A stretch of 64,000 nt of DNA from an uncultured Candidatus Cloacimonadota bacterium (GCA_964573665.1 CAZNKI010000001.1:28583-92582), one strand, 5' to 3'. Numbered from the stretch's first letter, positions 5,467-29,648 are shown. Notes: generated from the sequence alone by a model not told the origin. A program made the numbers and translations.

Positions 5467-7131
5467 TTATAATGAGATTAAAATATCATTTTCAACTTTT
5501 AAAGCTAATTGGTTTATTTGATCAATTAATGATTGAGATTTAGTGATAATATCGTTTTTAAAGGCTTCATCATTAATACTTCCCATGTTGATTTTGATGT
5601 TGAGGAAAGCGGCTTTAGCTGCAGCATTTGCTGTGATTGCGGCTACACCTGCATCTGAAAGAGCGTTTTTATTGCCGATCTTTGCAATCTTTTCAGCAAG
5701 AATCACACAATCATTTGCAATTTCCAAAGTTTTGAATGGGATGAGAATAGCATTTTTTGTTGCTTCTTCCATCTTCGTGTTTCTCAATGCTTTTTCTTCA
5801 TCAGTGCTTTTTGGCAATCTCATGGCATCCATCATTTCATAGAAAGCTTGAGTATCATCATCGATTGCTCTAAGCGCTTCTGCTTTAACTTTTTGAGCAT
5901 CTTCAGCAATTGGTTTTGCCTTTTCCCAAACATTTTCATAACCTTTTTTATTGATGGTAAGGTTTGCCACCATTGCACTAAGTCCAGCTGACATTGAAGC
6001 ACATAAAGCTGCAACACTTCCGCCACCAGGAGCAGGAGAGTCTGTTGATAATTCGTCACAGAAACCTTCAAGCGTAAGATCAACCAATCTTTTTTCAGGT
6101 TGAATTGCATATTCAATAACTTTTTTATCAATATCAAAAGGTGCAAGTTCTGCTAGCCCCATTGACTGGATCGCTGTTTCAATGATCATACGATCAGGTA
6201 AACCTGCACTTTCGCCTAAGCGATTGAGGTAATATTTTCCTGCCATGATGATCGCATCTCTCGGGATCAGTCCAACAAGTTCGCTACCTGTTACCACTAA
6301 TCCTTTTTCTATTGCAAGTTCTCTAACTTTTTCGAGAACAAGGTGAGCAGGAGTGATATTATAATTGGTCAGATTCATACTGATCTGAGCACGATTGTAT
6401 TCATCAATATACCAGCCTACAGCTTTACAATGTTTGAATAAACCATCTTCAAACAGCTTTTCGCCATTTGCATCTTTCATGATTTTTCCATCAGCATCGC
6501 GTTTGAGTTTTCCTTTTTCACGAATCAGTTCAGCGATATCTTGAGCTTTCTTTTTATCTCTTGTATTCAGATTGATATTGTAAGCAATTAAGAATTCTCT
6601 AGCGCCAATTACAGTTGCGCCTGATTTTTCATTAAATGCGAAGGGACCAAAGTCAGGTCTCCAGTATTCATCTTTCATTTTGTCTGGTAAAGCTTCATAT
6701 TCGCCTTTTCTGATTTCAGCTAAATTGACTCTTTCAGGTTTTGAAGCAGAATATTCATAAAGATAAACAGGTATATTTAATTCTTCACCTACACGTTTTG
6801 CGAGCGTTTTTGATAGTTCGATACATTCTTCCATACTAACGCCAGTCACAGGAATGAAAGGGCAAACGTCTGTAGCACCCATTCTTGCGTGAGCACCGTG
6901 ATGTTTTGACATATCGATCAGTTCAGCTGCCTTTTTGATTGCCAGAAATGCTGCATCAACAACAGCTAAAGGTTCTCCAACAAATGTGAATACTGTTCGA
7001 TTGGTATCAGCACCTGGATCGACATCAAGTAAGGTGACATTTTTTACAGATTTAACCTGAGCTGCTATTGCATCTAAAATTGAACGGTCACGTCCTTCGC
7101 TGAAATTCGGAACACATTCGATGAGTTTCAT
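5467..7131 (-). CDS. ftcD: Glutamate formimidoyltransferase / formimidoyltetrahydrofolate cyclodeaminase (bifunctional FTCD)
   Basis: The N-terminus MKLIECVPNFSEGRD is the formiminotransferase signature. The C-terminal ~200 aa is an Ala-rich helical cyclodeaminase domain (DSPAPGGGSVAAL). SD GGAGGA lies upstream of ATG 7131. Confidence 0.9.
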   Translation of the reverse strand: MKLIECVPNFSEGRDRSILDAIAAQVKSVKNVTLLDVDPGADTNRTVFTFVGEPLAVVDAAFLAIKKAAELIDMSKHHGAHARMGATDVCPFIPVTGVSMEECIELSKTLAKRVGEELNIPVYLYEYSASKPERVNLAEIRKGEYEALPDKMKDEYWRPDFGPFAFNEKSGATVIGAREFLIAYNINLNTRDKKKAQDIAELIREKGKLKRDADGKIMKDANGEKLFEDGLFKHCKAVGWYIDEYNRAQISMNLTNYNITPAHLVLEKVRELAIEKGLVVTGSELVGLIPRDAIIMAGKYYLNRLGESAGLPDRMIIETAIQSMGLAELAPFDIDKKVIEYAIQPEKRLVDLTLEGFCDELSTDSPAPGGGSVAALCASMSAGLSAMVANLTINKKGYENVWEKAKPIAEDAQKVKAEALRAIDDDTQAFYEMMDAMRLPKSTDEEKALRNTKMEEATKNAILIPFKTLEIANDCVILAEKIAKIGNKNALSDAGVAAITANAAAKAAFLNIKINMGSINDEAFKNDIITKSQSLIDQINQLALKVENDILISL

Positions 7132-7350
7132 TCTTCCTCCATTGATTCTATTAATGAAATCTATTTTCTACATTGAATAATTTTTGTCCATAGTTTTTTT
7201 AATAACAAGAGCTTTGAATTATCAACGACCTTTCTAAAATCCATCCAACACATTGATTTTAACGACCAGCTCCGTTTTTTCGTAACACAACCAACCTGGT
7301 TGTGAACCGTAACGCGAGCTACCAGCTAGCGAAATCTTCTTTCTTGTTCT

Positions 7351-7699
7351 GCGAACATCCTTGTTTGCAGTACATGGTCAATAAATGATTCCTTAACAAC
7401 CATGGCAATCTGTTAGCTTGCTTTACGCGATACACGACCATCTCAAATCACTCCGGCACAAATATTTATACGAGCAGCTCCATTCCCCTCTGTGGAGGGG
7501 TGGACGCGTTAGCGGACGGGGTGGTCATGGAAAAAGTGCATCTTTTTTTGATGCCAGTAGTTCATCAAGGAGACCCCACGCTTCACGATGTTCCGCTCTG
7601 GGTGACAGATGATCGTTTTTGTAGTTTTGCCGGAATATTCCATCTATCGAAATCTCATACATCCCAAGGAGTGCACAACGAGAGCAATCTGTTTGCTCG
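7351..7699 (+). repeat. GC-rich structured element, copy A1 (candidate ncRNA or MITE-like repeat)
   Basis: About 349 bp and roughly 93-95% identical by eye to 9174-9521. It contains the 26-nt head CACGACCATCTCAAATCACTCCGGCA (7433-7458), the 46-nt GC core (7481-7526) with hairpin CCCCTC-TGTG-GAGGGG (7485-7500), and hairpin GCATC-T7-GATGC (7538-7554). TCCGGCA (head) is complementary to TGCCGGA (about 7630-7636). The ORF-track entries 7418..7612, 7500..7790 and 7609..7794 only translate this repeat. Confidence 0.7.
7403..7418 (+). promoter_or_regulatory. Sigma-54-like -24/-12 element (TGGCAA-N5-TAGCT) just upstream of the A1 head
   Basis: GG at 7404-7405 and GC at 7416-7417 are separated by 10 nt, as in the TGGCAC-N5-TTGCW consensus, with two mismatches to that consensus. 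The equivalent sequence in the other copies has AG instead of GG, so only this copy looks functional. Confidence 0.25.
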
Positions 7700-7711
7700 C
7701 TTTACGGGATT

Positions 7712-7744
7712 GGGTAGGCAAAAACCTGTCCACACATTTTTTTT
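7712..7744 (+). terminator. Possible terminator after element A1
   Basis: GGGTAGG (7712-7718) pairs with CCTGTCC (7725-7731) with two G-U pairs. A 5-nt spacer and then T8 (7737-7744) follow. The geometry is non-canonical. Confidence 0.35.
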
Positions 7745-7806
7745 CACAACTATGCGTCTGTCAAAGATCATTTTCGAGCTGTTTTTTTGAATGATCAAAA
7801 TCGATC

Positions 7807-7840
7807 AAAAAAAAACATGCCCCTCTATATATATAGGGGA
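7807..7840 (-). terminator. Possible minus-strand terminator (GC-clamped AT hairpin plus T9)
   Basis: Minus strand reads CCCCTATATATATAGAGGGG-CATG-TTTTTTTTT. It lies about 118 nt downstream of the small minus-strand ORF 7958..8110. Confidence 0.35.
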
Positions 7841-7957
7841 TCCTTCAAGCTATAAAGTATTTTAAAAGTATGACTTTTATGCATTCTAACTAAATGTAAA
7901 ATAGTCTGATGCAAAAAAAGTAAAAAATGAAATAATGATTTTTTTTTGAATGCATAT

Positions 7958-8110
7958 TTAGGCGTTATTGTTTATGTTAAAGAAATAAAAAATGACAGTA
8001 TCGTTTATTCTGCTTATACAGCTCAAGCTTATTAATCTCTCCGTCTCTTTCTTCTTGCGGATCTGATCCTCCTCGTAGGAAGTCAGTTCAGAAGTTTCAT
8101 TGCGAAACAT
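7958..8110 (-). CDS. Unannotated 50-aa ORF between the 22-bp array and the putative terminator (hypothetical; possibly a gene remnant)
   Basis: Hand translation gives MFRNETSELTSYEEDQIRKKKETERLISLSCISRINDTVIFYFFNINNNA. The first ~30 codons have coding-like composition and the rest is AT-rich. There is no clear SD, and the ORF is below the 60-aa track cutoff. Confidence 0.2.
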   Translation of the reverse strand: MFRNETSELTSYEEDQIRKKKETERLISLSCISRINDTVIFYFFNINNNA

Positions 8111-8327
8111 GCTAATCTTGTAATTTCTCAGAGATTAAATTACACATTTATCAAAAAAACATTTTACTAAACAAACATCTTCTGAATAAAAATCAAAAAA
8201 ATCTTCTTTTAAATCATCTCTCCATCATTTCCAAAATATTGGCACTCTTTTATACGTTCATCTTCTTAATCTTATCTTCTGATCGAGAGAAGAGATCTTA
8301 TTGGTGATTGATTGATAATAAGGATTT

Positions 8328-8635
8328 GACATTTTGTCACATATGAAGTGACATTTTGTCACCTATGATTTAACATTTTGTTCAGTATGATGCGACATTT
8401 TGTCACTTATGATTTAACATTTTGTTCAGTATGATGTGACATTTTGTTCAGTATGAAGTGACATTTTGTAACCTATGATTTAACATTTTGTTCAGTATTA
8501 TGCGACATTTTGTCACCTATGATTTAACATTTTGTTCAGTATGATGCGACATTTTGTTCAGTATGATTCGACATTTTGTTCAGTATGATGCGACATTTTG
8601 TCAACTATGATTTAACATTTTGTTCAGTATGTTCA
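8328..8635. repeat. Tandem array of 14 x 22 bp (iteron- or operator-like)
   Basis: Unit starts at 8328, 8350, 8372, ... 8614 have exact 22-bp phasing. Consensus is RACATTTTGTYMASTATGATKY. Two unit types occur, GACATTTTGTCACCTATGATTT and AACATTTTGTTCAGTATGATGC, often alternating as a 44-bp super-repeat. The invariant core ACA-TTT-TGT is a dyad, extended to GTGACA-TTT-TGTCAC in type 1. Confidence 0.95.
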
Positions 8636-9105
8636 TGAAATTTATTATGATTTTTAATAAAAAAATGGGATATTCAAAGAATAAAAAATATAAAATTATT
8701 TAGTTTTACTAGAAAACTGCGTTCAATCTGATCCTGATTTTCATTTCTATCACCCCTAAAAAGGTTATGATTTCTACGTTTTAATAGAGCTTTTTATCTA
8801 TGAGTTTCATAGGAACGGTAGATGATTAACACAGGCTGTGAGGACTGTGAACATGATCTCAGAAAAAGAGCGCCATCAGTACAACACCGAAATTCAGTCA
8901 TATTTTTCGTAAATATTTTATATTTTCTGCATCAAAGAATTTATAAGATATATAAAATAAATAGCTGAACCGAGAGCAAGACGGCAGTACTAAGAGCGTA
9001 TGCCTGAGCTGAATTAGCAAAATTGGTTATTTTTTATCTCAAAATGGGTGTCTGGAGATATTTGATATCAAGTATTTTTTCTGTTTCCTGTATCTAAGAA
9101 TTTAA

Positions 9106-9179
9106 ATGTAGGGGCAGGTTTTACGCCTGCCCAATCATAAGTAGGGGCGAACCTGTGTGTTCGCCATCGTTCAGCGAAC
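9106..9179. repeat. Two GTAGGGGC-initiated GC hairpins (REP-like)
   Basis: GGGCAGG-TTTTACG-CCTGCCC spans 9112-9132 and GGCGAAC-CTGTGT-GTTCGCC spans 9146-9165. An alternative pairing is GTTCGC (9159-9164) with GCGAAC (9174-9179). Confidence 0.8.
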
Positions 9180-9521
9180 ATCTCTGTTTGCAGTACATGC
9201 CCAAGCAATGATTCATTAACAACCATAGCAATCTGCTCCCTTGCTTTACGCGATACACGACCATCTCAAATCCCTCCGGCACAAAGATTTATACGAGCAG
9301 CTCCATTCCCCTCTGTGGAGGGGTGGACGCGTCAGCGGACGGGGTGGTCATGAAAAAATTGCATTTTTTTTGATGCCAGTAGTTCATCAAGGAGACCCCA
9401 CGCTTCACGATGTTCCGCTCTGGGTGACAGATGATCGTTTTTGTAGTTTTGCCGGAATATTACATCTATCGAAATCTCATACATCCCAAGGAGTGCACAA
9501 CGAGAGCAATCTGCTTGCTCG
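9174..9521 (+). repeat. GC-rich structured element, copy A2
   Basis: Collinear with A1: head at 9256-9281 and GC core at 9304-9349. ORF 9241..9576 is a translation of the repeat (PLWRGGRVSGRGGH comes from the GC core). Confidence 0.7.
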
Positions 9522-9533
9522 TGTTAAACGATA

Positions 9534-10048
9534 CACGACCATCTCATATCACTCCGGCAAATATATTATTAACTGAATCAGTCATTCAGAGCGGAACGTA
9601 GTGTAGCGTGGAATCTCCCATAGAACATCATGCATCATGTTTTTTATTGTAATCGCAAGTTTGTGAATTTTATTATTCGTGTAAGAAAGCATCCATGAAC
9701 TGAACTTAATCGATAAATAATAGATCATCAACGAGATAACAATGACCACCCCGTCCGCAGAAGGGATTTGAGATGCTCGTAATAATTTGCTTTGTTGGAG
9801 TGATTTGAGATTGATGTATTTTATGTTTTCAGATGTACGGCACTTCGTTTCGCACATCCTTACAAGTGTTAAAAGATTGTATTGTAAGATGTTAGATTAT
9901 TGTACAAGCAGACCACCCCGTCCGCTAACGCGTCCACCCCTCCACAGAGGGGAATGAAGATTTACGGCAAATTACCAAACTGTTAATGCAATATATATGC
10001 TATGTAGCAACACAACAAACAAAAAAGTACATTCCAAAAAGTTCAGTT
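9534..10048 (-). repeat. 515-bp repeat unit B1 (holds a diverged, inverted copy of the A element plus an extra GC core)
   Basis: Head at 9534-9559, truncated core at 9744-9766, inverted head-like GGAGTGATTTGAGAT at 9797-9811, and full core (reverse orientation) at 9911-9956. The reverse complement aligns block by block with A (details in findings). Confidence 0.75.
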
Positions 10049-10525
10049 CACGACCATCTCAAATCACTCCGGCATATCTATTATTAACTGAATCAGTCAT
10101 TCAGAGCGGAACGTAGTGTAGCGTGGAATCTCCCATAGAACATCATGCATCATGTTTTTTATTGTAATCGCAAGTTTGTGAATTTTATTATTCGTGTAAG
10201 AAAGCATCCATGAACTGAACTTAATCGATAAATAATAGATCATCAACGAGATAACAATGACCACCCCGTCCGCAGAAGGGATTTGAGATGCTCGTAATAA
10301 TTTGCTTTGTTGGAGTGATTTGAGATTGATGTATTTTATGTTTTCAGATGTACGGCACTTCGTTTCGCACATCCTTACAAGTGTTAAAAGATTGTATTGT
10401 AAGATGTTAGATTATTGTACAAGCAGACCACCCCGTCCGCTAACGCGTCCACCCCTCCACAGAAGGGAATGGAGATTTACGGCAAATTACCATGCTGAAA
10501 TGCAATTTATATTGTATGTAAAGCC
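10049..10525 (-). repeat. Repeat unit B2 (tandem duplicate of B1, period 515 bp)
   Basis: Head at 10049-10074, truncated core at 10259-10281, full core at 10426-10471. ORFs 9582..9857 and 10097..10372 are 100% identical at the protein level, so the duplication is recent. Similarity fades after about 10525. Confidence 0.75.
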
Positions 10526-10578
10526 AACTGGTGGACATGCAAAACTGTTTTTATTGACACATATATTCAAACAAAGGA

Positions 10579-10608
10579 TAAAAAAAGAGACGCCGTTTAA
10601 GCGTCTCT
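10579..10608 (-). terminator. Rho-independent terminator of htpG
   Basis: Minus strand reads AGAGACGC-TTAAACG-GCGTCTCT followed by T7, immediately after the htpG stop at 10625. Confidence 0.8.
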
Positions 10609-10624
10609 TCATAATATATAATGA

Positions 10625-12436
10625 TTAAATCATTTGAAGTATTTTGTTGGCTTTTTGGATAAATGCCTGTAATTCATCGCCAGTAAATCTTTTTTGTTCC
10701 AACATAGCCAAGTCATGAATATAATTAGCAATCAGAGAAGCATCTTCAGTTTTACCTTCGGCTTGAAGTGCAGAAACTTTTTTCACAGTAGGATTTTCTA
10801 CATTGATGACCAGAGTATGGTTTTTTAGCATATCCTGACCACCGAGTCCCTGATTCATAGCATGCATTTCCTGGAAGCGTCTCATAAATTCATCATAGAT
10901 GATCATACCAGGTATATTCTCGGTTTTTAAATGTTTCGCTTCAATGGTTACAGCTTCATTATTCAGTGCCTGTACGAAGGTTTCTTTGATTTTATCAGCT
11001 TCGTTTTTAGCATTTTCATCTATGTTTTCAGATTTATCTTTATCAACGAGTGTTTCGTTAATTTCTGAGTCAATTCGAACAAATCTAACGTTTGTTTTTT
11101 TGCTTTCAAGGTGTGAAAGTAAATGAGTATCTAAGATTGAATCACAGAAGATGACTTCCATTCCTTGATCTTTGATGAGGTTGAGCAATGATACCTGAGT
11201 ATTTTCGCTGATTCCATAGTAAATCTTTTTATGTTCATCTTCCTGAGGATTTCTTTCAAGATATTGATCAACCGTGATATAGTCGCCTTTTGAAGATTTA
11301 AAGATTAAGACATCTCTGATGGCTTCTGAAAAATCATCTTCAGTTAAAACGCCATATTTCACAAACTGGTTGATATCTTCCCAGTAAGATTCGTATTTTG
11401 AGCGATCTTCAGCAAAGGTGTTTTTGAAGTGATCAGCCACTTTTCTGATAATGTATTTTTTGATTTTCTGAACTTCTTTATCATTTTGAAGGAAGCTTCT
11501 CGAGACATTTAAAGGAATATCTGGTACGTCAATACCTCCTCGGAGCATCATGAGAAATTCTGGGATGAATTCTTTTAAATTGTCAGCGACAAAGACATTG
11601 TTGCAATAGAGTTTTACAGTTCCGCGAGTGAGTTCAGCATCATTTTTAATTTTTGGGAAATAGAGAATCCCTTTTAAGTTAAAAGGATAATCCAGATTTA
11701 AATGAATTTGGAATAGAGGATCTTGCCATTCGTGGAAGATCTTTTTATAGAACTCTTTGTATTCTTCGTCAGTGACATCATTTGGTTTTCTGTTCCAAAG
11801 CGCTTCTTTCTGATTGACGATGTCTTTGCCCAACATAATCGTAAATGGCATGAAATTACAATACTTTTCGAGCAATTCTTTCATCTTGAATTCTTCTAAG
11901 TATTCATCAGCCTCTGCATTAAGATGTAAGGTAATCGTGGTACCGACTTTTTTCCTTTTGCCTTTGGAAAGCGTGTATTCAGTAGAGCCATCACATTCCC
12001 AGAATGCCGGCTCAGCGCCTTCATTCATCGATAAAGAGTCGATGGTGACTTTTTCTGAAACCATAAAGGAAGAGTAAAATCCTAAACCAAAATGACCGAT
12101 GATGTTTGATTGCTGATCTTTGAATTTTTCAACAAAGTCTTCAGCACCAGAAAAGGCGATTTGGTTGATATACTTTTCGATTTCTTCTGCAGTCATACCG
12201 ATACCATAATCGATAATTTTGATGCAACGTTTCTTTTTATCTATTTCGATCTCAATTCTCAGTTCTTCAGGTTGAACATTGGTATCGAGAATTTTTCTTT
12301 TGTTCATTGCATCAATTGCATTGGAAACTAATTCACGAATAAAGATATCATGTTCAGAATACAACCATTTTTTGATAATAGGAAAGATATTCTCAGTGTG
12401 GATACTTAAAGATCCGTTTTTCTTTTCATTCGCCAT
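10625..12436 (-). CDS. htpG: Molecular chaperone HtpG (Hsp90)
   Basis: TENIFPIIKKWLYSEHDIFIRELVSNAIDA and GHFGLGFYSSFMV are Hsp90 N-domain signatures. The start is moved to ATG 12436 (MANEKK...), 6 nt after GGAGGT; the track start 12466 is an upstream extension. Confidence 0.9.
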   Translation of the reverse strand: MANEKKNGSLSIHTENIFPIIKKWLYSEHDIFIRELVSNAIDAMNKRKILDTNVQPEELRIEIEIDKKKRCIKIIDYGIGMTAEEIEKYINQIAFSGAEDFVEKFKDQQSNIIGHFGLGFYSSFMVSEKVTIDSLSMNEGAEPAFWECDGSTEYTLSKGKRKKVGTTITLHLNAEADEYLEEFKMKELLEKYCNFMPFTIMLGKDIVNQKEALWNRKPNDVTDEEYKEFYKKIFHEWQDPLFQIHLNLDYPFNLKGILYFPKIKNDAELTRGTVKLYCNNVFVADNLKEFIPEFLMMLRGGIDVPDIPLNVSRSFLQNDKEVQKIKKYIIRKVADHFKNTFAEDRSKYESYWEDINQFVKYGVLTEDDFSEAIRDVLIFKSSKGDYITVDQYLERNPQEDEHKKIYYGISENTQVSLLNLIKDQGMEVIFCDSILDTHLLSHLESKKTNVRFVRIDSEINETLVDKDKSENIDENAKNEADKIKETFVQALNNEAVTIEAKHLKTENIPGMIIYDEFMRRFQEMHAMNQGLGGQDMLKNHTLVINVENPTVKKVSALQAEGKTEDASLIANYIHDLAMLEQKRFTGDELQAFIQKANKILQMI

Positions 12437-13905: not shown

Positions 13906-13929
13906 TTCGGCTCGAGCCGAGCCGGCTCC
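13906..13929. repeat. 24-nt GC-rich palindromic REP-like element, copy 1
   Basis: Sequence TTCGGCTCGAGCCGAGCCGGCTCC, with overlapping palindromes CGGCTCGAGCCG and GAGCCGGCTC. Confidence 0.85.
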
Positions 13930-13931
13930 AT

Positions 13932-15669: not shown

Positions 15670-15942
15670 ATGACTCGTGAAGACTTGGTTGCTAAAATTG
15701 CAGAAGATGCAAAAATCACTAAGAAAGCTGCTGCTAATGCTCTTAATTCTGTTTTAGACGGAATCGTTGAAGCACTTCAAGCTGGAGAAAAAATCACATT
15801 TGTTGGTTTTGGAACTTTTAATGTTATCGAAAGAAAAGCAAGAAAAGGTATCAATCCAAGCACAAAACAACCTATTGACATCCCTGCTTGCAAAGCTCCT
15901 GTTTTTAAAGCTGGCAGCAAATTAAAAGAAGCAGTTAAGTAA
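15670..15942 (+). CDS. hup: DNA-binding protein HU
   Basis: 90 aa with GFGTFNVIERKARKGINPSTKQPIDIPA (the HU arm). SD GGAGGT lies upstream. Confidence 0.9.
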   Translation: MTREDLVAKIAEDAKITKKAAANALNSVLDGIVEALQAGEKITFVGFGTFNVIERKARKGINPSTKQPIDIPACKAPVFKAGSKLKEAVK

Positions 15943-16024: not shown

Positions 16025-16048
16025 TTCGGCTCGATCCGAGCCGGCTCC
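16025..16048. repeat. 24-nt REP-like element, copy 2 (variant TTCGGCTCGATCCGAGCCGGCTCC)
   Basis: Same orientation as copy 1, with one substitution. Confidence 0.85.
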
Positions 16049-16099
16049 AAGACTTGTTTAAAGCATTTGGATTGGATAATTGATCTTCAGAATAATAAT

Positions 16100-16123
16100 T
16101 TCGGCTCGAGCCGAGCCGGCTCC
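16100..16123. repeat. 24-nt REP-like element, copy 3
   Basis: Exact TTCGGCTCGAGCCGAGCCGGCTCC, 8 nt from the stop of the 16131..16790 gene. The spurious ORF 16058..16261 translates it (GAGSARAE). Confidence 0.85.
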
Positions 16124-16130
16124 AGAGATA

Positions 16131-27866: not shown

Positions 27867-29648
27867 ATGAGTGACATGATTACAATTACAATTGATGGGA
27901 AAGTTATTGAGACTAAGTCAAGTAACACAATATTGCAAGCGGCAAAAGAGCATGGGATTTATATTCCTACGCTATGTTGGCATGAAGATTTAGCGCCAAC
28001 GTCAAACTGTGGGATTTGTGTAGTGTATGTGGACAAAAACACACAACCGAAGAGAGCATGCAGTACCCCAGTTTATCCAGGAATGAGTATTGTAAGCAAT
28101 AGCAAGGAATTACGATTATTCAGAAAAACATTACTTCAATTGTTTTTAGCGAATCATGACATTGATTGTCCTTCATGTAATGCAAATAATAAATGTGAAC
28201 TTCAAGAGTTATGCAACAATATGGGTGTAAAAATATTAGATGCGCCTGCCATTTATAAGAAAAAAGATTTAGATGAGAGTAGTATCGCTATAACAAGAGA
28301 TCCAAATAAATGTATCTCATGTGGACGCTGTGTAACCGTATGTAATGATGTGCAGGGAGTATCTGCTTTAACATTTGTTAATAGAGGTTTTGACGGTCAA
28401 GTGGATGTTGCTTTTTTAAATGGGTTAGGAAACAGTGCATGTATCAATTGTGGTCAATGTATCGTCTATTGCCCAACAGGTGCATTAAGTGAGCGTTCAC
28501 ATATTGATGAAGTATGGGAAGCCATTTATAATAATGACAAATATGTCATTGTTCAGGAAGCTCCAGCAATTCGTGCATCATTAGCCGATGAATTTGGCAT
28601 GAATATGGAAGACGTGACACCTGGAAAAATGTATGCAGCATTGAGAACCATAGGATTTGACGCTGTAATGGATACCAATTTTACAGCCGATTTAACGATT
28701 ATGGAAGAAGGAACTGAGCTTGTTGACCGAGTAAAGAAAAATCTGCCATTACCATTAATCACATCATGTTCACCAGGCTGGATCAAATATATGGAAACAT
28801 TCTATCCAGATTTAGCTCCTTACGTATCAACTGCAAAATCACCCATGTCCATGTTTGGCGTATTAAGTAAAACATATTATGCTCAGAAGAATAATATTGA
28901 TCCCGCAAAAATCGTATCTGTAGCGATCATGCCATGTACAGCGAAAAAATTTGAAGCGAATCGACCAGAATTAAGAGATTCTGGTTTTCAAGATACAGAC
29001 TATGTATTAACGACACGTGAGTTTATCAAATTAATCAAAGAAGCTGGTATTGATTTCAAGAATATTCAAGAGGAGCAAGCAGATCAAGGTATGAGTTTTT
29101 ATACTGGAGCTGGAACAATTTTTGGAGCTACAGGCGGGGTAATGGAAGCTGCAATTCGTTCAGCATTTACACTAATCACTGGAGATGAATTACAAGAAGT
29201 TGACATTAAAGTTGTCAGAGGGTTGGAAGGCATCAAAGAAGGAACTGTTGATATCCCAGGATTTGGATTGTTAAAAGTTGCTGTTGCGCACGGAACAAGT
29301 AATGCTCAGAAATTGATGGATAAAGTCAGAGCACAAATCAGTGAAACAGGTAAGTCAGAATATCATTTTATTGAGGTCATGGCATGTCCTGGCGGATGTG
29401 TGGGCGGAGGTGGCCAACCTTATGGTAACAGCTTAAGTAAGAGAGTAAAACGTGCTAATGCATTATATAAAGAAGATCAAAATATGAAGATCAGAAAATC
29501 ACATCACAATCCAGAAGTAGTAAAGATATATGAAGAATTTTTAGGTTCACCGAATTCACCATTAGCTCAGAAATTGTTACATACACATTATTTTGAGCGA
29601 TCACAGATTAATGGTCAAGTGGTGAAGGAAGTGACCCATAAGCATTAA
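27867..29648 (+). CDS. hydA: Monomeric [FeFe]-hydrogenase (clostridial-type, with N-terminal 2Fe-2S and accessory 4Fe-4S domains)
   Basis: H-cluster motifs TSCSPGW, MPCTAKKFE and EVMACPGGCVGGGGQP. The N-terminal region has CGICVV, HDIDCPSCNANNKC, CISCGRCVTVC and CINCGQCIVYCP. SD GGAGAG lies upstream. Confidence 0.9.
   Translation: MSDMITITIDGKVIETKSSNTILQAAKEHGIYIPTLCWHEDLAPTSNCGICVVYVDKNTQPKRACSTPVYPGMSIVSNSKELRLFRKTLLQLFLANHDIDCPSCNANNKCELQELCNNMGVKILDAPAIYKKKDLDESSIAITRDPNKCISCGRCVTVCNDVQGVSALTFVNRGFDGQVDVAFLNGLGNSACINCGQCIVYCPTGALSERSHIDEVWEAIYNNDKYVIVQEAPAIRASLADEFGMNMEDVTPGKMYAALRTIGFDAVMDTNFTADLTIMEEGTELVDRVKKNLPLPLITSCSPGWIKYMETFYPDLAPYVSTAKSPMSMFGVLSKTYYAQKNNIDPAKIVSVAIMPCTAKKFEANRPELRDSGFQDTDYVLTTREFIKLIKEAGIDFKNIQEEQADQGMSFYTGAGTIFGATGGVMEAAIRSAFTLITGDELQEVDIKVVRGLEGIKEGTVDIPGFGLLKVAVAHGTSNAQKLMDKVRAQISETGKSEYHFIEVMACPGGCVGGGGQPYGNSLSKRVKRANALYKEDQNMKIRKSHHNPEVVKIYEEFLGSPNSPLAQKLLHTHYFERSQINGQVVKEVTHKH

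Follow-up and report, generated by a model that had tools for sequence, protein, structure and literature searches.

A strain-variable mosaic of small palindromic modules, probably REP- or MITE-like repeat DNA, between FTCD and htpG in a Cloacimonadota chromosome

The gene-free region and its repeat copies

The DNA analysed here, referred to as the window, is a densely coding segment of a Cloacimonadota chromosome, 64 kb in length. The genes for formiminotransferase-cyclodeaminase (FTCD) and HtpG, the products of which have their best-named relatives in Candidatus Cloacimonadota, are separated in it by 3.5 kb free of genes, and this mosaic region holds every copy of the repeats that we call A, B and C (Table 1). 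With arrowheads marking orientation, its layout from left to right is A1>, an AT-rich spacer of 1.46 kb with 14 tandem repeats of 22 nt, A2>, <B1, <C1, <B2 and <C2. The longest open reading frame (ORF) in the gap is at most 111 aa. A search of viral contigs for relatives of the 22-nt array gave one chance match in coding sequence and nothing else. Near the repeat region the cumulative GC skew passes through a weak minimum; an origin of replication was considered for this reason and dropped, there being no DnaA-box cluster.

Table 1. Features of the FTCD-htpG interval (positions are those of the window)
Feature	Position	Strand	Remarks
FTCD	5467-7131	minus	left neighbour of the gap
Gene-free mosaic region	7132-10624	.	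3.5 kb, between FTCD and htpG; holds every A, B and C copy
'E' module	7396-7427	+	small hairpin, ACAAC..GCAATCTG..GCTTTACG; precedes the inverted end
A1 element	7428-7649	+	222 nt between inverted ends
GC core of A1	7476-7530	+	P1 CCCCTC-TGTG-GAGGGG, TGGA, P2 CGC-GTTA-GCG, GACGGGGTGGTC
Block 3 of A1	7569-7610	+	GGAGACCCCACGCTTCACGATGTTCCGCTCTGGGTGAC; closing stem ACCC/GGGT
'E' module, truncated copy	7675-7710		
Two GTAG-headed GC-rich hairpins	9108-9165 (9108-9132, 9141-9165)	+	just upstream of the A2 homology; z -4.3
'E' module, further copy	9219-9250		
A2 element	9251-9471	+	~97% identical to A1 inside the ends
GC core of A2	9299-9353	+	65 bits
Block 3 of A2	9391-9432	+	
'E' module, further copy	9497-9528		
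B1 element	9529-9820	-	292 nt; inverted relative to A
C1	9907-9961	-	isolated full two-hairpin GC core with ~25 nt of A-like 5' flank; 68.3 bits
B2 element	10050-10335	-	99% identical to B1; second unit of the tandem duplication
Block 3 of B2	10092-10133	-	canonical form; same as B1 9577-9618
C2	10422-10476	-	duplicate of C1; 67.6 bits
htpG	10625-12436	minus	right neighbour of the gap

A1 is composed, in this order, of a left end, block 1b, a full two-hairpin GC core, a hairpin GCATC-T7-GATGC, block 3 in its ACCC/GGGT stem variant, block 4 and a diverged right end. The parts of B1 are its two ends (9529-9559 and 9793-9820), a collapsed GC core (9740-9769), an AT-rich insert of ~123 nt and a canonical block 3 (9577-9618). 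C1 has neither block 3 nor an inverted end. When the reverse complement of B was aligned with A by MAFFT, the two corresponded in four blocks, exactly as an earlier sequence-only reading of this DNA had described. Pattern searches of the window give 4 matches for block 1, 6 for the GC core and 4 for block 3, where shuffles predict 0.00; all of these matches are confined to 7.3-10.5 kb. The four-member family of that reading, with two members per strand, stands for A1, A2, B1 and B2; it has to be extended by the truncated copies C1 and C2, which bring the number of GC cores to six, and reduced to two lineages. Its difference of ~20 nt in the GC core is real: the A core contains two GGA(C)GGGGTGG units with a small hairpin between them and the B core a single, collapsed unit. 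The inserts, which it had put at about 55 nt in A and about 135 nt in B, turn out shorter, with ~40 nt between core and block 3 in A against the ~123 nt of B.

The repeated stretches run from 7346 to 7704 and from 9169 to 9526 for A1 and A2 (91-94% identical), and from 9534 to 9833 and from 10049 to 10348 for B1 and B2 (99% identical). The homology of A1 and A2 overruns the inverted ends by ~80 nt on the left and by ~55 nt on the right (7346-7700), and the two copies are set apart as a direct duplication of 1.8 kb. B and C together form a tandem duplication of 515 bp (9534-10048 / 10049-10563) with 98-99% identity over 427 nt. Judged by these extents and identities, A1/A2 and B1/B2 are recent segmental duplicates, leaving A and B as the only two lineages that carry comparative information, and local duplication suffices to account for each full copy seen.

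ORFs of 91-111 aa overlap A2, B1 and B2, and it might be supposed that the units encode small proteins, for example the 91-aa product of 9582-9857 with its hydrophobic stretch. The reading frame, however, differs between A and B in block 3, an indel of 1 nt between A1 and A2 shifts the frame and breaks any ORF common to them, and variation in block 3 does not fall on third-codon positions. There is no Pfam match, and the 91-aa B ORF has no homologue among 5.8 billion proteins. A coding role is thereby effectively refuted.

The ends of the elements are imperfect inverted repeats of 26-31 nt with the consensus CGATACACGACCATCTCAAATCACTCCGGCA. Those of B are mutually complementary, a point on which the sequence-only reading was right: over 15 nt the pairing is perfect in B2 and has one mismatch in B1, which is not balanced by a compensating change, and it extends imperfectly to 26-31 nt. 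The right end of A (TGCCGGAATATTCCATCTATCG, 7628-7649) pairs with the left end (7428-7458) and is internally diverged, the outer TATCG and the inner TGCCGGA of the consensus being kept and the middle replaced; GTGACAGATGATCGT at 7604-7618 is a second candidate for this end. The end ATCACTCC agrees with the REP head GTCATTCC in only 7/8 nt, a likeness that we record as a lead only towards possible homology.

Two follow-up searches proposed in the sequence-only reading, for target-site duplications and for an autonomous insertion sequence (IS) with the same end, came back empty. Direct reading of the A1, A2, B1 and B2 flanks gave trivial agreement of 2 nt at most and no target-site duplication. 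The end pattern matched 7 times in the JGI metagenomes, each time in unrelated sequence and in about the number given by a rough chance estimate (about 7), and 0 times in viral contigs; no autonomous IS or other copy with these ends was found in the JGI metagenomes, viral contigs, fetched loci, plasmids or cultured phages. Block 1b had two chance matches only in metagenomes and viral contigs. BLAST of whole A and B units against the fetched loci, plasmids and cultured phages returned no match beyond the GC core and block 3. Contigs of the same species were the only ones found to carry block 1, block 4, the 26-31-nt ends or the 'E' module.

The same end (CGATACACGACCATCTCA.ATCACTCCGGCA) stands in the same plus orientation in A and in B, with the interiors inverted between them. 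This arrangement, together with the inverted repeats that flank B, would suit a segment flipped by a site-specific recombinase between the 26-31-nt ends, with A as the other orientation. Such a switch is nevertheless highly improbable. Large indels and substitutions separate the interiors, which over block 3 are 81% complementary, and differences of this size point to old paralogues, not to two states of one segment. Moreover, no recombinase gene was found nearby in the scan of 19 window ORFs against Pfam, there is no outward promoter or gene to be switched, and B1 and B2 lie in the same orientation.

The GC core and block 3 in other genomes and phages

The consensus of the GC core is AATTCCCCTCC-loop-GGAGGGGTGG(C), followed by a hypervariable hairpin and by GACGGGGTGGTT. 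The A and C copies are full instances, and in the window a covariance model of the core scores these four at 64-68 bits, against 15 bits for the collapsed copies of B. The first and second hairpins of the full core fold as predicted; this folding is lost in the single-box core of B. In the window the second hairpin has a stem of 3 bp, a loop of 4 nt and a TCCA tail.

A search with the two G-rich boxes (GGAGGGGTGG N5-35 GACGGGGTGG) found the core in 35 stretches of viral contigs, with a GC content of 34-71% and up to 5 copies per contig, at times as inverted dimers and at times adjoined by GTAG-headed hairpins. The first hairpin is constant across copies, as are both GGGGTGG boxes. The second hairpin varies in sequence and length even within one contig, with pairing kept: 5 of 6 pairs are changed on both sides (39 cells), which none of 500 shuffles equalled, and pairing fell to ~50% in slid controls. 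Its stem ranges elsewhere from 3 to more than 10 bp, and its first pair is A-T in 16 of 30 sequences. When the large ORFs of 8 core-bearing contigs were scanned against PHROG, 7 contigs matched tailed-phage or prophage families (tail sheath, major head, terminase, portal and Mu-like transposase) and 1 had no match. The core is intergenic in all 8 contigs examined in detail (one of them outside the PHROG-scanned set), and between co-directional genes it shows no orientation bias, with 12 copies in the same and 11 in the opposite direction. BLAST of the core consensus against phages gave nothing meaningful, and Rfam had no match to the core motif in 7 viral loci. The core also occurs in Bacteroidota and in a related Cloacimonadota strain. 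The covariance model places copies near block 3 in L034, L035 and L022 (two Chryseobacterium loci and one Chitinophagaceae locus); the distance from the core to the downstream block 3 is ~40 nt in L034, where the orientation is that seen in A.

Block 3 was traced with the exact-match pattern CCACGCTnCACnnnGTTCCGCTCTG in one genome per species. The 33 loci returned are all from Bacteroidota, namely many species of Chryseobacterium, Kaistella, Halpernia, a Chitinophagaceae genome and a Cyclobacteriaceae metagenome-assembled genome, and no Cloacimonadota genome was among them. The block 3 of B is 94-97% identical over 36-38 nt to the Chryseobacterium and Chitinophagaceae copies. The Bacteroidota loci share the extended consensus AGATTCCACGCTnCACTnnGTTCCGCTCTGAATGACAAA, in which conservation of the loop is partly forced by the exact-match search; that of the flanks AGATT and AATGAC, at least 90%, is not. 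Upstream of block 3, at a distance of 15-35 nt, most Chryseobacterium loci have an imperfect inverted partner, TTTGTCATTCCGTAGGAATCT, an arrangement like that of REPINs. In the Chitinophagaceae genome, block 3 lies near the right end of a different element of ~175 nt with inverted ends of its own.

The stem of block 3 comprises 4 bp (ATTC/GAAT) around a loop of 23 nt, in the frame GTCATTC...GAATCT. In A, CC/GG replaces TT/AA in the two inner pairs, so that the compensated stem reads ACCC/GGGT; in the Cyclobacteriaceae copy it is ATGC/GCAT. All 128 cells examined are paired, 3 of them compensated, and none of 500 shuffles equalled this. The sequence-only reading had discerned no clean covariation by eye; compensatory changes are present at the level of the module, in this stem and in the second hairpin of the core. 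Taken alone, block 3 does not form a stable hairpin (z about +1), and what is conserved in it is mainly the sequence of the 23-nt loop. Its conservation therefore needs another reason, which could be a binding protein, hypothetical at present.

Repeat mosaic, structured RNA or decayed island

The interval between FTCD and htpG differs among close strains. In a contig encoding a 97%-identical HtpG (85% at the DNA level), the match to the window ends at 10582, just past the htpG terminator, and the next gene there is a convergent DUF1003 gene that is missing from the window. Where FTCD is 99% identical, the strains carry the A element upstream of it. A further strain, whose FTCD is 97% identical, diverges 74-90 nt upstream of the gene and is without A; at the end of its contig lies a GC core in reverse orientation, the second hairpin of which is different, GACCACCCCGTC-AGC-TGTC-GCT-GCCACCCC. 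Between close strains the region is thus hypervariable, and different forms of the core module reappear in it. Of the empty sites that the sequence-only reading had suggested looking for, no clean case was seen: A is absent or the region different in relatives, by replacement and not by precise absence. Short-read contigs break inside the modules. Such breaks do not establish dispersal over the genome, the modules being repeated already within the locus.

The break in synteny with the closest relative falls exactly at the repeat region, as it would if the region were the decayed remnant or boundary of an integrated plasmid, prophage or island, with A1 and A2 as att-like sites and B and C as debris. 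A1 and A2 are direct repeats around a 1.46-kb AT-rich segment whose 14 iteron-like repeats could mark a former replication or partition region, and phage and prophage contigs often contain the GC-core module. Against this, the 3.5 kb contain no integrase, rep or par gene and no ORF above 111 aa, similarity to viral contigs, plasmids and phages ends with the short modules, and the inverted, block-wise diverged B copies are left unexplained. We consider an origin of this kind quite unlikely.

A and B might also be genes for structured non-coding RNAs of ~220-290 nt, with the ends pairing as a closing helix, internal hairpins at the core and at block 3, and expansion loops made of the variable segments; a domain of ~280 nt closed by such a helix was one of two explanations offered in the sequence-only reading. 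In the minimum-free-energy fold, the complementary ends of B do form a helix of 15 bp, both hairpins of the core fold as predicted, and the compensatory changes in the second hairpin of the core and in the block-3 stem are of the kind that an RNA would show. A terminator-like hairpin with a T run follows A1 at 7711-7732; A2 is without it. When the four bounded copies, representing two independent lineages only, were folded together by RNAalifold, however, the consensus reached -14.8 kcal/mol over 284 columns, with 20 pairs of which 1 covaries. With A read forward, the folding z-scores are -1.0 and -2.0, against -3.5 for the other strand; the antisense strand thus folds no worse than the sense strand, a pattern expected of inverted repeats at the level of DNA. 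The core of B is collapsed and does not fold, A is without most of the closing helix and has no sigma-70-like promoter ahead of it, and the locus is missing from the nearest strains. A search of Rfam, at gathering and at permissive thresholds, gave nothing meaningful at E<=10 in 7000-10700. The sole Rfam match in the window is a Moco riboswitch elsewhere. A promoter of the Bacteroidetes type (TAnnTTTG), which overlaps block 4 in A1, A2 and B1, was considered and set aside, as this organism shows TTGACA/TATAAT-like promoters and GGAGG ribosome-binding sites.

The modules themselves argue further against one RNA. Elsewhere they are found apart from each other and in both orientations relative to genes, as in the even split of the core between directions. 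The two best-conserved islands, block 3 and the core, stand alone in unrelated genomes or in other combinations and so are not islands of a single molecule, which is how conserved islands had been understood in the sequence-only reading. An RNA domain of ~280 nt is accordingly left with little in its favour, and we judge it unlikely; the A and B units are most likely selfish repeat DNA of the REP/MITE kind.

Based on these observations, we propose that A, B and C are probably copies of one lineage-specific, non-coding composite repeat of ~220-290 bp, a selfish palindromic mosaic similar to REP/BIME or MITE elements. The composite would have been assembled from smaller palindromic modules, two of which are widespread repeats in their own right. 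The mobilisation that we infer, like any effect on the host, would begin with the modules forming hairpins in single-stranded DNA or in transcripts and being spread by a hypothetical enzyme acting in trans. A Y1/HUH-type transposase is the most plausible guess for this enzyme, because the hairpins are tagged and there is no target duplication. Once clustered, modules may multiply locally through recombination between copies, and three such events appear to be visible here: the inversion between A and B, the 1.8-kb direct duplication of A and the 515-bp tandem duplication of B+C. The block-wise pattern would arise because functional modules are kept or replaced while the linkers decay by indels; A would have kept an intact core and a block 3 with stem-preserving changes, and B a canonical block 3 and a collapsed core. 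Several observations weigh on the other side. Besides the missing target-site duplication and autonomous element, the scan of 19 window ORFs against Pfam contained no transposase or recombinase family, which speaks against a mobile element, and the compensatory changes and the conserved closing helix are also compatible with RNA.

A more far-reaching idea concerns the FCB group, that is, the Fibrobacterota-Chlorobiota-Bacteroidota and allies. The modules could be recognition hairpins of a widespread, undescribed system acting on single-stranded DNA (or RNA) and common to bacteria of this group, Cloacimonadota and Bacteroidota among them, and their tailed phages, a suggestion that we regard as tentative and rather doubtful. 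Under it, the two invariant GGGGTGG boxes and the constant hairpin would frame the hypervariable, always-paired second hairpin, and the differences of the latter between copies within one genome suggest an element of specificity. Block 3 would present its conserved 23-nt loop as a putative protein-binding site, and the A and B units would be composite carriers of both sites, served by an enzyme that may be a Y1/HUH transposase or a recombinase. If this were true, the modules would represent either a new REP-like superfamily with mobilisation machinery of its own or a regulatory hairpin shared between phages and hosts.

For the window, the preferred reading as a repeat mosaic removes a candidate structured RNA and would explain a gene-free, strain-variable region of 3.5 kb, in which short-read assemblies break and synteny with the nearest relative ends. 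The residue of greatest interest is the pair of modules, above all the G-rich motif of two hairpins, the second of which is hypervariable and always paired. The two modules recur across Bacteroidota, Cloacimonadota and many phage contigs, the one with compensatory variation and the other with a conserved loop. If a cognate enzyme or binding protein exists, the REP/RAYT picture would, through these modules, take in the FCB group and its phages. The modules would also be useful as markers in annotation, in strain typing and for the masking of spurious ORFs.

Relation to known repeat families

Both modules are without an Rfam entry and without a mention that we could find in the REP literature examined, and they appear to be undescribed. 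Neither is listed in the supplements of the REP and HUH papers, where CCACCCC is also absent (PMC3733652), and literature searches by sequence string gave nothing relevant. The closest frame is that of the CGTC/TGTC-tagged REPs of Di Nocera, De Gregorio and Rocco (2013; PMC3733652), among them Rickettsia RPE and Neisseria dRS3. These intergenic palindromes are short and have an unpaired tag (CGTC, TGTC or CCTC), a stem of 8-9 bp that starts with A-T (ATTCC...GGAAT), a loop of 4-5 nt and a CCA tail; they occur mostly as inverted dimers in several phyla, including Bacteroidetes/Chlorobi, and have no dedicated transposase (PMC3733652). In Neisseria, the tagged REPs are clustered in mosaic intergenic regions among other repeats (PMC3733652).

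On the opposite strand, block 3 reads (T/A)GTC-ATTC-[23 nt]-GAAT-CTC and has a comparable unpaired head: A has TGTC-ACCC, B has AGTC-ATTC, and most copies from Bacteroidota have TGTC-ATTC. The opposite strand of the core's second hairpin gives CGTC-stem-loop-stem-(G/T)CCA, a likeness in which the head is forced by the search pattern. Unlike the tagged REPs, block 3 has a stem of 4 bp, a sequence-conserved loop of 23 nt and a CTC tail, and the second hairpin of the core ranges from 3 to more than 10 bp, stands between constant GGGGTGG boxes and lies beside an extra constant hairpin. Although the frames resemble each other, the dimensions of stem and loop do not fit, and on these sequence features we would file neither module as a CGTC/TGTC-tagged REP.

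MITEs such as the Correia elements of Neisseria, which have 26-bp terminal inverted repeats (TIRs) and a length of 100-155 bp, are also similar in being small and non-coding, in their inverted ends of ~26 nt, in folding as long hairpins and in their presence or absence between strains. Unlike MITEs, A and B have no visible target-site duplication and no parent IS among the sequences searched. Within the 64 kb of the window they occupy one locus, as local duplicates. A MITE had been the other explanation of the sequence-only reading. It fits better than an RNA in that the units are small, non-coding, strain-variable and bounded by inverted ends (a unit below ~500 bp with no conserved ORF); the expected target duplication and autonomous IS were looked for without success.

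The REPs of BIMEs and REPINs have a GTAG head and an associated RAYT gene. The A, B and C modules are without this head, the 19 window ORFs scanned against Pfam have no match to a RAYT/transposase family, and a GT[AG]G head is found only in the two neighbouring hairpins upstream of A2 (GTAG-GGGCAGG..CCTGCCC and GTAG-GGGCGAAC..GTTCGCC). The units of Neisseria intergenic mosaic elements (NIMEs) are flanked by dRS3, the A and B units instead by the 26-31-nt ends. In overall organisation, however, the region resembles the BIMEs and REPINs of E. coli and Pseudomonas and the NIMEs: all are mosaic intergenic clusters in which inverted REP-type hairpins alternate with short motifs, and BIMEs, REPINs and NIMEs are likewise strain-variable and hot spots of recombination and rearrangement.

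Tandem array between FTCD and htpG, and a skew minimum near it

The spacer between A1 and A2, two copies of a non-coding composite repeat with inverted ends, carries 14 tandem copies of the unit GATGTGACATTTTGTTCAGTAT, with a super-period of 66 nt and the palindrome GTGAC-ATTTT-GTCAC inside the unit (see table). The array looks like a set of iterons or a centromere-like site; no rep or par genes were found near it, and no relatives in viral contigs, where the single match was coding and attributable to chance. Cumulative GC skew in the window reaches its minimum near this repeat region (~8000-12000). A replication origin at that position is not supported, since the skew minimum lacks a DnaA-box cluster and the genes on either side lie on the same strand.

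Features of the window and of the fetched loci (L-handles; window positions otherwise)
Feature	Position	Strand	Remarks
Terminator-like hairpin, then T run	7711-7732	+	immediately 3' of A1
22-nt tandem array	8279-8667 (TRF 8323-8631)		AT-rich spacer, A1 to A2
Two GTAG-headed GC-rich hairpins	9108-9132, 9141-9165	+	immediately upstream of A2
Palindromic repeat TTCGGCTCG-nn-CCGAGCCGGCTCCA	13906-13930, 16025-16049, 16100-16124	+	small; intergenic
Molybdenum/tungsten cofactor riboswitch, RF01055	27255-27376	+	50.1 bits
REP-like unit TTTGTCATTCCGTAGGAATCT	L019 4142-6172		Chryseobacterium sp. Tr-659; at least 8 copies
~175-nt element	L022 2497-3660 and L013		Chitinophagaceae bacterium MMS25-I14; 3 copies, one degenerate
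Group II intron reverse transcriptase, IS66- and IS256-family transposase genes	L046 1774-6943		
Repeat mosaics	L069 340-1130, 3050-3100, 6445-6560		IMG/VR contig (GC 0.39); in the intervals separating phage structural genes

Elsewhere in the window, the small palindrome occurs three times against an expectation of zero, and two of its three copies lie shortly downstream of an HU-family gene (15670-15942). The riboswitch is placed upstream of an ORF at 27867-29648.

Neighbourhoods in other bacterial and viral loci

In the related Cloacimonadota genome (L046, a 1.84-Mb contig), the cluster of mobile genes lies a few kb upstream of htpG; its group II intron, IS66 and IS256 elements bear no A/B-like ends. 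A copy of block 3, the 38-nt hairpin-like module, adjoins the REP-like units in Chryseobacterium sp. Tr-659; most of these units recur every ~226-235 nt, which suggests that a longer repeat is arrayed in tandem. In the Chitinophagaceae elements, which have the inverted ends CCGGATATTCCGCAGGGC ... GGGGCTGCGGAACATCCGG, block 3 stands close to the right end, and two of the elements have a simplified GC-core-like hairpin between them. In the mosaics of the viral contig, the two-hairpin motif (the GC core) is joined by a GTAG hairpin, by another inverted motif and by short tandem repeats of the GAGTGAGGA type. Within this single contig the second hairpin of the two-hairpin motif has three different stems, all closed by the same TATTT loop.

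Hairpins flanking the A elements

No annotated gene reads into the terminator-like hairpin that follows A1, and nothing comparable follows A2. The two hairpins preceding A2 read GTAG-GGGCAGG...CCTGCCC and GTAG-GGGCGAAC...GTTCGCC, and folded as DNA they give a z of -4.3. A comparable GTAG hairpin adjoins the two-hairpin motif in the viral contig. The pair upstream of A2 shares the format of the REPs associated with RAYT, the Y1-type transposase tied to GTAG-headed REPs.
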